Source of the DNA: Escherichia coli O127:H6 str. E2348/69
GTDB lineage: Bacteria; Pseudomonadota; Gammaproteobacteria; Enterobacterales; Enterobacteriaceae
Length of the DNA: 64,000 nt
Reading direction: 5' to 3' (one strand)
Assembly: GCF_000026545.1 (NCBI RefSeq)
Contig: NC_011601.1
Of this stretch, positions 35,377-52,142 are shown piece by piece. Positions within the stretch are counted from its first letter, which is position 1. Each line of letters opens with the position of its first letter. A model generated the notes under the pieces. It was not told where the DNA came from, ran no database searches, and saw nothing but the letters and a program-made list of their open reading frames with translations. The translations under genes and the position numbers were made by a program.

Positions 35377-35679
35377 TTACTCCGTTGATACCAGTAAATG
35401 ACTGAGGCCGCCCAGATCAGTTTTCGTGGGATAATCCTGTGTGTTGTCATCGCAGACCACCACCAGCTTAAAACCAAGTCCCATACAGGCGTACTGCGCC
35501 AGCAGATCAGCGCCAGTGACGAGAGGAATACCGGAGATTACCGGCTCCCCTCTGTCGTTCTGCAGGTCCATAATCCAGTAAGGATCGCGCCATATGATGC
35601 TAATCCGCCAGGTGACACCACCCAGGACGATGCTGAACTGCTGGTTGTCCGCTGTCAGCGGAATTTCCTGAATTGTCAT
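35377..35679 (-). CDS. Small tail protein
   Basis: 100 aa, 4-bp overlap with neighbours in the tail module. Confidence 0.45.
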   Translation of the reverse strand: MTIQEIPLTADNQQFSIVLGGVTWRISIIWRDPYWIMDLQNDRGEPVISGIPLVTGADLLAQYACMGLGFKLVVVCDDNTQDYPTKTDLGGLSHLLVSTE

Positions 35680-36266
35680 TAGCCGCCTCCCAGTAATGAC
35701 GCCACGTTACCAGTGATGCTTTTCAGCAGTGAAGTATCTGGAGGCTTTGTGGTTTTGTTGCCGCTGTTCTGTACCGCCGACGTGCTGGCCCCTTCCTTCA
35801 TGTTGGTTTTATCCGCGACGGTAATCTGCTGTGTCCGGGAGATAAGGACCTCCCTCAGGGTGAGGACGGCGGACAGGACGTTTTCGGTTGTCTTGTCCGT
35901 CGTCACTTCCAGCGCCCGGATCAACATGTTGCTGTACAGTCGTTTACCGGTTACCACATCGAAGGGGATACGGCTTTCCTGCAGATCCAGTAGCTCCTGA
36001 TACGTCTGCTGAGGACTCAGGCCGAGCAGGCTGGTAGCCGTCAGATTACTGGCAAAATCCAGCAATGCGCCGCCACCGGCGAAACCAACCTCCATCACCA
36101 CTTCTGACGGTTTTTTATAGGCATGATCAGCGACAGCGGCCCCGACCTCTACCGGATGCTCTGTTATTTCAAGCATATCTGTATGCTTCTCTGAAATAAC
36201 AACACTGGGAACAATCATTCCTATTTTTCTGCTCTGCTGATGAAAAAGTGTAGAGAGAATATCCAC
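35679..36266 (-). CDS. Tail protein (Mu gpP-like position)
   Basis: 195 aa directly downstream of the tape measure gene. Confidence 0.45.
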   Translation of the reverse strand: MDILSTLFHQQSRKIGMIVPSVVISEKHTDMLEITEHPVEVGAAVADHAYKKPSEVVMEVGFAGGGALLDFASNLTATSLLGLSPQQTYQELLDLQESRIPFDVVTGKRLYSNMLIRALEVTTDKTTENVLSAVLTLREVLISRTQQITVADKTNMKEGASTSAVQNSGNKTTKPPDTSLLKSITGNVASLLGGG

Positions 36267-38275
36267 TAACCCACCCTCACCTGATTACTTCGCATGACCT
36301 GAGCATTTGCAGACTGTTGCCGACGTGCAACCTCATTACCGACAGCGTGCGGATCTCCGCCACCGTAAATGTGGTAAGTATTTTGCTGGTTAACCTCTGT
36401 CATTTTGCCACTAATTCCCGTCACGGCAGCCTTATTAATCAGCTCTCGAGAATAGATATTTCTTCCATTTTCATGCTGGATAATGCTGCTCATCAATGCT
36501 GACATGGTTTGCGGATCGCTCATATTCAGGGCAGCCCGGGGATCCACTCCCAGTCGTTGCGATACAGCCCTGATATACGCAGTTGTGTTGTTATTATCAG
36601 ACGCAGGTGCCCAGGTAGAGATAATTTTCTCCACGCTGTTTATTCCACGTCCGGCGTACAACATTAACTGACGAGCAAGAGCCCGTAATCCATCAAAAGC
36701 AGTTTCAAATCTGGCAAATCGCCCGCCCGGGCGTTCAAGAGAAGCCCCTGCCTGACCAGCAAAATTAAGGTTTCCCGGATTGTTATTCCGTTCTCCTCGT
36801 TTCGTAGCCTGTGCATATTGTTCCGGCTCATCATCACCAAACCAGCCGCGTACCGTCCGGCCCACACTGCGGGGATCGAATCCCCAGTGCTCTTTAATCC
36901 AGTCGGCAGTACTGTTAGCGCTGTCTGTAACCATCGGCATCGCTGACGGATTTTCGCTGCCCTGATTAAGTATCTGTTTGCCGATGCTGACGGCATCAGC
37001 CCAGCGGCCATCTTTGATAGCGTTGAGCAGGTCGGCGATCATGTTCAGCATTTTGCTGAATTCGCCCATCTGGTCGATGAAGTTGCTGAAATCCCACTTC
37101 AGGGACCATGATTTGGGGTCAATATTGAGCAGTTTCGCCAGCGCTTTCACCAGTTCATTAACAGACCCTTTCAGGTCACGAACCATCTTCAGCGCGGCAT
37201 CGACCTCCGGCTTCCACTTGCCCCAGTCAATCAGGCTGTCGCCGCCTTCCTTCCAGGTCTGATAGTCCTCCCACAGAAGGGCAATCCCCGCCGCCAGCGC
37301 GGTAATGAGGCCAATCGGCGACATCCAGAACGTACTGTTCAGAATGCGCAGCGCAATCGTCAGCGCGCCAAACAGCGAGATGAGCTCCCGCGTTTGCTTA
37401 TCCAGCGATTGCCACCAGGTGATAAGGCTGGATGTTCCCTCAATTAGCCTGAAGAACAGCCGCCCGATGATGTCTCCGAGCGCCAGAATGCCTTTTATGG
37501 CTTTCGTCAGGGTCTGCTCGATGCGCGGGAAGTTATCGAGGATGTGGCGGCGCAGTGTGTCCAGCGAACCCGCCAGACCACCAGCAAGATTAGAGCCGAT
37601 TTTGTCACGGGCCATGCCTGCCATCGCGCCGAACTCGCGCAGGGAGGTCATGAATTTGTTGGAGCTTCTGGCCGCCTCGTCAGTATTGAAGCCGATAGCT
37701 TTCGCCATTGCGCTGTACTGCCCGGAGAAATCACCCACACCCCGGCGCATCGCCATGAGGGTATTTTCGTCAATACCCAGCATCTGCGCATACTGGTTAG
37801 CCCGGTAATACGGCATGCTGCTGAGCTTCTGTCCGACACCCGTAAAAATAGCGGCCATGTCGCGCATGTTGCCGCTGGCGTCACGGGTCTGTACGCCCAG
37901 GCGATTCAGAAAGCCTTCTGCACCGGGATTGTTACGAATAAACCGGGAGAGGCTTTCCAGAGAAGATCGCGCAGCGTCCACGCTGCCGCCAACCTGCGAA
38001 ACCGCATAGCCAATAGACTGAATCCCCTGAACCGTCGCGCCGGTGCGCTGTGACGCCCAGTAGAGATTATCCAGACCGGAGGCGATCTTGGCCGTGAAGG
38101 CCACCACGGACAGCGCAGCTCCTTCAACAGCCAGCCCCATTTTGATGACATTTGCAGTTGTACCGGCGAGGACAGAACCGAATTTTTTCGCGCCTGCATC
38201 ATCCACACTGAAGCCAAGCGAGACAAGGAAATCTTTAATAGTTTCAGCGTTCATTATCCTCTCTCCATTTCTCAA
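36266..38275 (-). CDS. Tail tape measure protein
   Basis: 669 aa; Gly/Ala-rich, long helical segments; position after tail assembly chaperone. Confidence 0.7.
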   Translation of the reverse strand: MRNGERIMNAETIKDFLVSLGFSVDDAGAKKFGSVLAGTTANVIKMGLAVEGAALSVVAFTAKIASGLDNLYWASQRTGATVQGIQSIGYAVSQVGGSVDAARSSLESLSRFIRNNPGAEGFLNRLGVQTRDASGNMRDMAAIFTGVGQKLSSMPYYRANQYAQMLGIDENTLMAMRRGVGDFSGQYSAMAKAIGFNTDEAARSSNKFMTSLREFGAMAGMARDKIGSNLAGGLAGSLDTLRRHILDNFPRIEQTLTKAIKGILALGDIIGRLFFRLIEGTSSLITWWQSLDKQTRELISLFGALTIALRILNSTFWMSPIGLITALAAGIALLWEDYQTWKEGGDSLIDWGKWKPEVDAALKMVRDLKGSVNELVKALAKLLNIDPKSWSLKWDFSNFIDQMGEFSKMLNMIADLLNAIKDGRWADAVSIGKQILNQGSENPSAMPMVTDSANSTADWIKEHWGFDPRSVGRTVRGWFGDDEPEQYAQATKRGERNNNPGNLNFAGQAGASLERPGGRFARFETAFDGLRALARQLMLYAGRGINSVEKIISTWAPASDNNNTTAYIRAVSQRLGVDPRAALNMSDPQTMSALMSSIIQHENGRNIYSRELINKAAVTGISGKMTEVNQQNTYHIYGGGDPHAVGNEVARRQQSANAQVMRSNQVRVG

Positions 38276-38431
38276 TGCGCCGCTGGTTATCCGCTTTTAC
38301 CGCCAGATGGTCATTCAAGAGAGCAATGTCATACAAATCGACAGAGCCATCTTTAAGTGCTGTATAAGGAATTAACCCGGCGTCAACCGGATTGAGAAGG
38401 TAGGACAGCCCGTCCGGCAGGCTGTTAAACG

Positions 38432-38884
38432 TCAGCCCTGTTGCAGGCTCTGCGTCGTGCTGGTAAGGGGTGTAGGCAAAAAATTTCCCAGCGAATCGGC
38501 GACCACCCGCGCCACCAGCTGCAGCATGGTTAGCAGGTCGATATCATCGAACATCAGCTGACCGCTGTTGAATACCGGCGTCCATCCGTCCATGTGCTTA
38601 CGTGACACTACGGCCAGGCAAGGATGAATAATCGCGTTGGTATCTTCTTCAGTCAGGGAAGACAGTTCCTCAGCGATACGCGGGAGCATGGCTTCAAACA
38701 CCGGTTTTAACTGCTCGAATTTCACGGTGTCGATTTTGCCGTCGGCAGGCAAACGGGAGCGAATGCTCCCGAAATCTGACATCATTCCTGCCAGCACCGG
38801 CAGAAGTTTGCGGGTCACTTTCAGCTGATCAAAAACGCTGAGTTTTGCCGCGCGATATTTCACGCCTTTGATTTCGAATTCCAT
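38432..38884 (-). CDS. Tail assembly chaperone
   Basis: 150 aa acidic protein between tube and tape measure genes. Confidence 0.6.
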   Translation of the reverse strand: MEFEIKGVKYRAAKLSVFDQLKVTRKLLPVLAGMMSDFGSIRSRLPADGKIDTVKFEQLKPVFEAMLPRIAEELSSLTEEDTNAIIHPCLAVVSRKHMDGWTPVFNSGQLMFDDIDLLTMLQLVARVVADSLGNFLPTPLTSTTQSLQQG

Positions 38885-38887
38885 GTA

Positions 38888-39328
38888 TTAAAACTCCCCG
38901 AGAACCTGGTCAATCTTGCCGCAGTCAAACACCCACGGCATCGTATTACCGGCCTTAGCGTTGGCGTTATCCGGCTGTTTCTGGAACGCCACGCTGCGCG
39001 CCGTGATGATGTCTCCGCTCACCTTGTTTCGGATCACAATGACGTTGTTCCCCCAGGTGCCTGAGGACTGACTCTGCGCGTTGTACGCCAGCGACAGCTT
39101 TTTGTTTGTCGGCGAGGTTTTCAGCAGGTTGACGGTTACCGTGCCGCTTTTGTCCGCGTGCAGGCTGTGCATCACTTCGCCGTCAGCACCGATGGTCATG
39201 GTGTTTTTGGGACCGCCCATTGCAACAGTGATCCCCTCCTCTGAACTGGCGGAACCGTAGCCAAGATCAATCTCGCCGGTCGGGCCGGAGAGGGACGCCG
39301 TAACGTCCATAAAAGAATAAGTAGCCAT
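38888..39328 (-). CDS. Tail tube protein
   Basis: 146 aa, follows the sheath gene. Confidence 0.65.
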   Translation of the reverse strand: MATYSFMDVTASLSGPTGEIDLGYGSASSEEGITVAMGGPKNTMTIGADGEVMHSLHADKSGTVTVNLLKTSPTNKKLSLAYNAQSQSSGTWGNNVIVIRNKVSGDIITARSVAFQKQPDNANAKAGNTMPWVFDCGKIDQVLGEF

Positions 39329-39339
39329 TCATGTTCTCC

Positions 39340-40485
39340 TTAGCGAACGACGTTGATCTGCACATCGGCATAATGAACTGCGCCAGCCAGCTTACAGGCC
39401 ACCTGAATTAACGGTGCTTTGCGAGCTTCTCGGTCGGCCTGCGCCTGTTCGGACAGAGGTTGCGCATACACGTAATAACCTTTGGTCAGCGTATCGCCGG
39501 AATTCAGCTGTCCGATAGGGCCACCATTCCACACGCCAGCCGCTACCAGACCGTTCGTGACGGACTGATCCATGGACTGTTCAACGTTGGAAAGCAGACG
39601 GGTCACACCGGCATCAGTCTGCGGAATTTTGGTGGTGCTGGTGTAAAGCAGGTTATAGAGGTTGGTCTGCACATAATTCTGTAACCAGTCCAGGCCGTGG
39701 CGTTCATCAAAGAAATCGCCGTTAGCCATCACTCCCTGCTGGAGGATAGCCGTATCATTCTGGTAGTACACGAACACATTGCAGTTTTTTGCGTCAAGTG
39801 CCGATGCCTGGCTGACTGTCAGTGTTTCATACCCGACACCCGGCTCCTGCTTAAACTTGAGCGTAATCGCGGTATTACTGCCATTGAAATTAACCGTGAA
39901 TGCCCGGCCAAATGCAGATAACGCAGCGTATTTATTACCCGATGAATACTGAATAAAACTGCGTGAATATCCGGCGGTTTTCAGTTTTGATGCCAAATCA
40001 TCTCTGGATGCAGTCTGCAGGCATTTCTCATCGCTTGTCGTAATCGCCAGAATACGGCTTACAGAAGAGGATTCGATCGCCGCAGCCACTTTCAGCCAGT
40101 CTGCATCCGGAATATCTGCATCGTCTGCAATCCCCAGCCCATACCATGAAGTATAATCAAGCATGGCATTCACAGCCTGCTCCAGCGTCTCAGGCGTGGC
40201 CTGTTCGCTGTCTCCCTTCGTTTTCACCCAACGACCAACAAAAACCTCCTGAGGTTTCGGTGATTGAGAGAAAAACACCTGCGCAGCCTTATATTCTGGT
40301 GATTCCACGCCAAAATCTTTTCCAATATCTTCCGCGGCAGAATAACGGCGAATGCGCTCACTTACCGGAATGATTGTGGACGGGCCGAGAATGAGTAATG
40401 CACCAAAATTTCGCCCTGATGCTGCACGCGGCGACATGATCACATCAACATTAACAACGTTTGATACAGGCAAGCCCTGTGCCAT
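39340..40485 (-). CDS. Contractile tail sheath protein
   Basis: 381 aa, precedes the tube gene in canonical myovirus order. Confidence 0.65.
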
Positions 40486-51986: not shown

Positions 51987-52062
51987 TGGTGCTGGTTAAC
52001 GGACTTGAACCGCTACCCATTCGCTTACAAGGCGACCGCTCTACCATTGGAGCTAAACCAGC
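51987..52062 (-). tRNA. Phage-encoded tRNA-Thr (anticodon UGU)
   Basis: 76-nt cloverleaf on the minus strand: perfect 7-bp acceptor stem GCTGGTT/AACCAGC, D-loop with GG, anticodon loop CTTGTAA, T-loop TTCAAGT, discriminator A, encoded CCA. Confidence 0.8.
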
Positions 52063-52067
52063 ATGTT

Positions 52068-52142
52068 TGGCGGGACAGCGTGGACTCGAACCACGATAAG
52101 AAGGTTAACAGCCTTCCGTAATGACCTTTATACGACTGACCC
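52068..52142 (-). tRNA. Phage-encoded tRNA, probably Asn (anticodon GUU)
   Basis: 75 nt: GGGTCAG...anticodon stem GAAGG/CCTTC, loop CTGTTAA...GGTTCGAGTCC T-arm...CCA; one acceptor and one D-stem mismatch and a 4-nt variable loop. Confidence 0.6.

Follow-up and report, generated by a model that had tools for sequence, protein, structure and literature searches.

A Probable Programmed −1 Frameshift Extending the Tail Assembly Chaperone of a Contractile-Tailed Prophage in Escherichia coli E2348/69

Introduction

The tail assembly chaperone gene in a prophage of Escherichia coli O127:H6 str. E2348/69 very probably undergoes a programmed −1 ribosomal frameshift of the lambda G/GT and P2 E/E+E′ type, by which a second, longer chaperone would be read through the short interval that separates this gene from that of the tape measure protein. 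A sequence-only reading of the window (the whole stretch of 64,000 nucleotides of contig NC_011601.1 analysed here) had suggested that this interval may hold a frameshift-extended chaperone, and the suggestion is now supported by a slippery run near the end of the chaperone gene, an open −1 frame beyond it, a match of that frame to the Pfam family DUF6889, and the conservation of the arrangement among related phages. Frameshifted tail chaperones are an ordinary, long-known device of tailed phages, and the E2348/69 locus is, as far as its sequence can tell, a mis-annotated member of this well-understood class.

In the mechanism that we propose, most ribosomes would stop at 38432 and release a short form of 150 aa, and a minority would slip back by one nucleotide on the run GGGAAATTTTTTG, most likely at A_AAT_TTT (38486–38480). 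The slipped ribosomes would cross the gap in the −1 frame, terminate at the TGA at 38246–38244 and yield a long form of 213 aa. If the lambda system is a guide, the body common to both forms would bind the tape measure protein, the extra domain of the rare long form would bring in the tube protein and so allow the tube to polymerise around the tape measure, and the virion would retain neither form. The tube protein is the presumed partner of the extension domain, again on the lambda precedent. That slippage occurs we infer from the signal, the open frame, the selection acting on it, its lack of an independent start and the conservation of the whole arrangement, all of which are directly observed.

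The Tail Operon and the Interval between Chaperone and Tape Measure

The chaperone gene belongs to the late operon of a prophage whose integration site adjoins tRNA-Arg(CCT), intS and yfdC, and which joins lambda-like early genes to a contractile tail module. The tail genes around the gap are all on the minus strand, and the features concerned are the following:

39340–40485, minus strand: tail sheath protein, 381 aa (Pfam DUF3383 / E217_gp31_N, E 2.9e-101)
38888–39328, minus strand: tail tube protein, 146 aa (Pfam KPP10_Orf10, named Phage_Tube_PhiTE in the pre-computed tables, E 1.4e-60)
38432–38884, minus strand: tail assembly chaperone, short form, 150 aa, 16.7 kDa (Phage_TAC_15, phrog_1688)
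38503–38508, minus strand: Shine–Dalgarno-like (SD-like) GGGTGG (anti-SD binding strength, codon invariance)
38477–38489, minus strand: slippery run GGGAAATTTTTTG (sequence scan)
38244–38480, minus strand: predicted −1 frame extension, 78 codons and TGA (open frame, DUF6889, codon-position variation)
38244–38408, minus strand: RefSeq 'DUF6889 family protein' WP_071819661.1, 54 aa, CTG start (RefSeq annotation)
36266–38254, minus strand: tape measure protein, 662 aa (phrog_2276 'tail length tape measure protein', E 1e-282; RefSeq start)
35679–36266, minus strand: baseplate protein (Pfam Dit_like)
34313–35374, minus strand: baseplate protein (Pfam E217_GP41, baseplate hub, under the curated cut-off)

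The presence of a sheath gene, the homologue of which is labelled 'tail sheath' in SEN34 and BgManors32, indicates that the tail is contractile. The tube gene lies directly 5′ of the chaperone gene, and the order of tube, chaperone, extension (ending at 38244) and tape measure is the one that the G/GT class requires. The interval from tube to tape measure is the canonical position of the chaperone (PMC5009743; PMC3091744).

The sequence-only reading had described the gap as a 156-bp interval with no annotated open reading frame (ORF), and both parts of this description held only partly. No ORF of at least 60 aa is present between the two neighbouring ORFs, the second of which, being the next long one after the chaperone, begins in the ORF list at TTG 38275. 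The tape measure start is, however, more probably ATG 38254 than this TTG, since an SD sequence GGAGAGAGG stands at 38266–38258 and RefSeq also begins the gene there, and the gap is then more probably 38255–38431, or 177 nt. Likewise, the gap is empty in the ORF list but not in RefSeq, which has WP_071819661.1 at 38244–38408. With the ATG start, the end of the extension and the beginning of the tape measure gene overlap by 11 nt.

Some further features of the prophage deserve mention in their own right. Over its C-terminal third, the tape measure protein matches the endolysin and transglycosylase families phrog_873 and phrog_7182, and close relatives label the whole gene 'lytic transglycosylase'; by these matches, the protein carries a predicted built-in cell-wall-degrading domain (lytic transglycosylase-like). 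A helix-turn-helix fragment lies beside the integrase gene intS, near 28066–28263, and the annotation at about 29081–29650 (minus strand) marks the tail fibre gene as a pseudogene, truncated to 190 of about 381 codons in comparison with SEN34. The prophage may not be capable of producing infective particles, and the truncation of the fibre gene implies that its operon is possibly no longer under selection in E2348/69. The prophage also bears genes for tRNA-Asn(GTT) and tRNA-Thr(TGT) at 51987–52142 (minus strand), between the Q antiterminator and the holin gene. A partnership between this tRNA-Asn(GTT) and the AAT codon of the slip site was considered and was rejected as a conserved feature, because SEN34 has an identical slip site and zero tRNA genes.

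The Chaperone Body and the Slippery Run

The short form is recognised by Pfam Phage_TAC_15 (PF21822) over residues 6–136, with 112.7 bits and E 2.2e-32 against a gathering threshold of 22 bits, and by phrog_1688 'tail assembly chaperone' with E 3e-62. Its zero-frame stop is the TGA at 38434–38432. The sequence-only reading had called for a search of this end of the gene for a slippery heptamer and an overlapping frame, and both were found. The run GGGAAATTTTTTG occupies 38489–38477, 16 codons 5′ of the stop, where the zero frame reads CTG GGA AAT TTT TTG, and the −1 frame, open already from about 38540, meets no stop before the TGA at 38246–38244. Three X_XXY_YYZ heptamers are nested in the zero frame of the run, namely G_GGA_AAT (38489–38483), A_AAT_TTT (38486–38480) and T_TTT_TTG (38483–38477), and such a nested triple is unique within the window.

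The middle heptamer, A_AAT_TTT, is the most likely shift site on comparative grounds, since 17 of the 18 diverse loci compared below share a T followed by a Phe codon, TTT or TTC. All three heptamers may contribute to slippage, given that P2 uses T_TTT_TTG and lambda uses G_GGA_AAG. Heptamers of the form H_HH.U_UU.Y are among the most efficient that have been measured in E. coli; U_UU.Y is the second-best A-site tetramer, and A_AA.U and U_UU.G are poor (PMC4066793).

A single heptamer is by itself weak evidence for frameshifting, because one is present in frame within the last 40 codons of 12 of the 51 long ORFs of the window, in which in-frame heptamers occur at 0.3% of codons. The same frequency can be turned to the view that the gap is a non-coding spacer or a decayed remnant, in which the open frame and the heptamers arose by chance, and the partly decayed look of the prophage, with its tail fibre pseudogene, points the same way. 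The openness of the −1 frame past the stop was tried as a statistic and set aside as uninformative, since 22 of the 51 ORFs show it through ordinary ATGA-type overlaps. What tells against a spacer is the content of the gap and its history among relatives, to which we now turn.

The Extension in the −1 Frame

Between the run and the TGA at 38246–38244, the −1 frame offers 78 uninterrupted codons. A +1 reading was rejected, since that frame closes only 7 nt beyond the end of the chaperone gene and is not conserved in any of the 18 diverse loci. The predicted long form therefore consists of chaperone residues 1–135 followed by the 78 codons, making 213 aa and 23.9 kDa; a linker of about 25 aa joins its chaperone body to a helical DUF6889 domain, itself some 55 aa long. 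A slip on the first or second heptamer would give the product ...ADSLGNFFAYTPYQHD...EKWREDNER, and a slip on the third would give GNFLAY at the junction. Digestion with trypsin would leave this junction within a peptide of 52 residues. Residues 173–211 of the fusion, encoded at 38369–38253, match Pfam DUF6889 (PF21829) with 70.6 bits and E 8.7e-20 against a gathering threshold of 23.9 bits, and residues 161–213 match phrog_4364 with E 1e-22. The extension peptide also matched PEGA and Glug multi-repeat proteins, and these matches were judged to be compositional noise.

The pattern of variation in the gap is that of a coding sequence. Across 61 distinct ungapped homologues, the variable sites of the gap number 8, 7 and 35 at positions 1, 2 and 3 of the −1-frame codons, so that 35 of 50 are third positions (chi-square p 3e-7), and the flanking genes show the same third-position pattern, each in its own frame. 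Judged by this bias, purifying selection acts on the −1 frame across the gap.

A rival reading is that the gap holds an independent small gene, whose DUF6889 protein would be made from a start of its own (CTG 38408), perhaps by ribosomes that re-initiate once they have finished the chaperone. Existing annotation leans toward such a gene: RefSeq models 54 aa from CTG 38408, a separate small ORF is called in PSTCR3, BgManors32, ZHS, GZ7, yong1 and MD-2021a, and most database representatives of DUF6889 are ORF calls of 40–90 aa. Nevertheless, a scan of the −1 frame for ATG, GTG or TTG found none until TTG 38336, which is 98 nt past the chaperone stop and inside the conserved domain, and a usable −1-frame start is likewise absent in YP3, SEN34, Omnitron, AbTJ and EKP1. 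The RefSeq model begins with the non-canonical codon CTG at 38408, from which E. coli initiates very poorly, and the SD-like GGACGGG ahead of it is weak. Moreover, the conserved motif (S)LPDG..(W)LL.PV starts 14 nt past the chaperone stop, so that the conserved SLPDG lies 5′ of the CTG; the starts chosen in different records are not homologous; and single-ORF fusions of the two domains occur in nature. We consider an independent gene very improbable, and we read WP_071819661.1 as a mis-modelled fragment of the frameshift extension.

Conservation across Related Phages

The comparison covered 18 diverse loci of 31–100% identity from at least nine host genera, the hosts including Escherichia, Salmonella, Yersinia, Klebsiella, Hafnia, Citrobacter, Providencia, Edwardsiella, Bordetella, Acinetobacter, Ralstonia and Burkholderia. 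The −1 layout is kept in all 18, with the frame open to the start of the tape measure gene. A perfect heptamer stands at the homologous aligned position in 16 of them, and its sequence varies among GGGAAAT, AAATTTT, TTTTTTG, TTTTTTT, GGGTTTT, TTTTTTC and CCCTTTT; the heptamer is imperfect, with T_TTT after an imperfect triplet, in Edwardsiella ZHS and Burkholderia E192a. The tetramer T_TTT or T_TTC is found in 17 of the 18 loci. The Bordetella phage retains only G_GGA_AAT, which is a poorer motif by the E. coli rules (PMC4066793).

Closer relatives tell the same story at the level of the nucleotide. The 13-nt run is identical in 80 of 80 close IMG/VR loci; among these close loci, one has a broken extension and two end at contig edges. 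In eight diverged phages, the chaperones of which are 58–89% identical, the slip codons GGA AAT TTT TTG show zero synonymous change, although 39 of 47 degenerate codons with an invariant amino acid (83%) vary synonymously, and only 4 of 43 are invariant besides the slip codons. This synonymous invariance indicates a constraint on the nucleotides themselves. A tblastn search with the 213-aa fusion against 50,697 phage records matched 40, and in 40 of 40 the match was split in two pieces. Taken as sequence comparisons, these results are far beyond chance.

The broken locus (L051, a frame-breaking change, 1 of 82 related loci) might be cited once more in favour of a spacer or remnant. That view is effectively refuted already by the DUF6889 match (E 9e-20), the concentration of variation at third codon positions, and the retention of the layout in 18 of 18 loci of proteobacterial hosts at 31–100% identity. 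Scans of the gap for other elements also speak against a spacer: no promoter-like site was found in it; two terminator-like matches, one of them in the gap (38393–38374), are the chance expectation and not convincing; and a search of Rfam at E up to 1 over 38150–38650 returned a chance miRNA match only. We give a non-coding gap next to no credence.

Candidate Stimulators and the Predicted Structure of the Long Form

Stimulators of the shift were sought on both sides of the run. Folding of the 47 and 87 nt past the run revealed no significant RNA structure (z −0.9), the first stem lying at least 15 nt past the run, and a downstream stimulatory structure was rejected. The missing structure weighs little, because the P2 site has none either (PMC3091744). 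Upstream, GGGTGG (38508–38503) lies 13 nt 5′ of the first heptamer and ranks in the top 1% of 8-mers of the chaperone gene by strength of anti-SD binding. Its codons CGG GTG are invariant in eight enteric-type phages, and the site encodes a conserved Val-Val. A comparable SD-like element is present in the Bordetella phage, the Ralstonia phage and two Burkholderia phages, and absent in six others, or present in about 5 of about 11 independent lineages. A spacing of 13 nt between SD and heptamer is within the stimulatory range for −1 shifts, taken here as 10–14 nt for signals of the dnaX type. Thus there is a hint, and only a hint, that GGGTGG acts as an upstream frameshift stimulator, and it may instead reflect merely a coding constraint.

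The 213-aa fusion was modelled with AlphaFold from an alignment of 17 sequences, giving a pLDDT of 84 and a pTM of 0.76. The model comprises an alpha/beta chaperone body, a lower-confidence linker at residues 138–156 and a helical extension at residues 157–211. Its body matches predicted viral tail assembly chaperones with E 1e-8 over about 140 aligned columns; in the PDB, a profile search of the sequences and Foldseek gave nothing significant.

Comparison with Known Frameshift Systems

The closest mechanistic precedent is lambda, whose slip heptamer is G_GGA_AAG and whose G/GT frameshift is reportedly treated by Levin, Hendrix and Casjens in 1993 and by Xu, Hendrix and Duda in 2004, 2013 and 2014 (summarised in PMC5009743). 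In the G/GT class as defined after Xu, Hendrix and Duda (2004), a short and a longer protein are reportedly produced in vivo at a low, fixed ratio, and the second frame has neither a start codon nor a ribosome binding site to itself. As in lambda, two overlapping frames are present here, with an X_XXY_YYZ motif near the end of the first ORF and a second, −1 frame that lacks its own start; G_GGA_AAT, the first of the heptamers here, is one base off that of lambda. The two systems differ in that no sequence similarity to lambda G or T was found, the proteins here being of the Phage_TAC_15 and DUF6889 families, and in that a contractile tail and three nested heptamers are present here as against one heptamer in lambda. 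Lambda G and GT are tail assembly chaperones produced by a −1 frameshift, and are encoded between the major tail and tape measure genes; tail assembly requires the two products, neither of which is found in the virion, and the extension binds the tube protein (PMC5009743).

P2, like the phage considered here, is a contractile-tailed temperate coliphage, and its chaperone gene has the same position and the same direction of shift. The frameshift of E/E+E′ is a −1 shift at T_TTT_TTG, with no downstream hairpin (PMC3091744). The P2 site TTTTTTG is identical to the third heptamer here, and a downstream hairpin is found in neither. Unlike P2, the present locus encodes other protein families, with products of 150 and 213 aa as against 91 aa for E and 142 aa for E+E′, and the comparative data favour the neighbouring A_AAT_TTT over TTTTTTG. 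In the E. coli dnaX gene, which yields tau and gamma, an SD-like sequence acts as an upstream stimulator, and GGGTGG, 13 nt 5′ of the first heptamer, is a possible counterpart. In contrast to dnaX, no downstream stem-loop is present here, and about half of the independent lineages lack the SD-like element.

Two phages have true homologues of the whole fusion, already annotated as frameshifted. Klebsiella phage Mulock (CPT_Mulock_014/015, MN098327) is 59% identical and shares the 13-nt run without change, and Burkholderia phage Magia (gp15/gp16, NC_070954) is about 37% identical and has C_CCT_TTT at the homologous place. In GenBank, both carry a joined CDS named 'tape measure chaperone frameshift product', and these annotations are bioinformatic; the word frameshift is absent from the Mulock genome announcement. 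The idea of a frameshift is therefore already on record for this family, as annotation only.

Natural Fusions of the Two Domains

In some relatives, the two domains are found in a single ORF. One contig of Logan SRR23924998 (L099), 94% identical to the E2348/69 locus, reads GGGAAATTTTTTTG at 1896–1909, with T7 instead of T6, and consequently has a single ORF of 213 aa with both Pfam domains, as a −1 shift would yield. This T7 is either a real mutant that makes the long form only or a homopolymer sequencing error. The contig also shows that a one-base insertion gives the exact fusion, and in this respect it favours an explanation by transcriptional slippage, in which RNA polymerase would add one U on the T6 and the same 213-aa protein would be translated from a subset of the mRNAs. 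The composition of the run, six T after three A, is likewise suited to it. However, efficient transcriptional slippage in bacteria is described at runs of about nine A or T (PMC5009743), and here there are six T. In addition, a heptamer is kept without a long homopolymer in Bordetella (GGGAAATAC) and in Burkholderia and WC36-2 (CCCTTTTA), which indicates that the conserved feature is the zero-frame X_XXY_YYZ pattern and not the run. Slippage by the polymerase thus has only a slim chance of being the explanation, and ribosomal frameshifting is the reading that we retain.

More divergent relatives in Logan metagenomes carry Phage_TAC_15 and DUF6889 in one ORF of 208–209 aa (within the regions L105, 5502–6633, and L106, 1038–1664), and the junction GYFSYTPVAFD of one fused relative aligns with NFFAYTPYQHD of the −1 frame here. 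These single-ORF fusions indicate that DUF6889 is a C-terminal domain of the chaperone and not a free-standing protein. Directly 5′ of the fused ORF, L105 has a separate Phage_TAC_15 gene of 164 aa, and the short and long forms would appear, from this arrangement, to be encoded as two genes. In neither L105 nor L106 is there a tape measure gene directly after the fusion, baseplate or spike genes being found there instead, and L105 has a 620-aa lysozyme-domain protein further on. In L105, two genes seem to have taken the place of the frameshift, within a tail module that has been rearranged.

A more ambitious interpretation can be built on these observations, though we think it unlikely. In that interpretation, the composite signal of the triple run and GGGTGG would set an unusually high or tunable ratio of short to long form, DUF6889 would be an unrecognised family of contractile-tail 'T-domains', and some lineages, such as L105, would have exchanged recoding for a fusion plus a separate short gene. 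If it were true, lineages of the L105 type would be a natural test of why frameshifting normally fixes the ratio.

Consequences for Annotation

The main value of the finding lies in annotation, and the understanding of tail assembly or of recoding is unchanged by it. If DUF6889 is taken as the C-terminal domain that frameshifting adds to Phage_TAC_15 chaperones, a domain of unknown function would acquire a role; a full-text literature search for 'DUF6889' returned zero papers. The mis-modelling of the extension appears to be systematic: the label 'DUF6889 family protein' is used in the best 15 of the 336 E. coli genomes that have the region, and in most phage records the stretch is left blank or given a small orphan ORF. 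The frameshift reading would correct this in widespread temperate myoviruses of Enterobacteria, Acinetobacter, Burkholderia and others. Finally, a 201-aa database protein (P0121) joins NAD_binding_7 to a DUF6889 domain sharing 98% identity with that of E2348/69; the protein probably arose as a chimera of assembly or as an ORF across a prophage junction.
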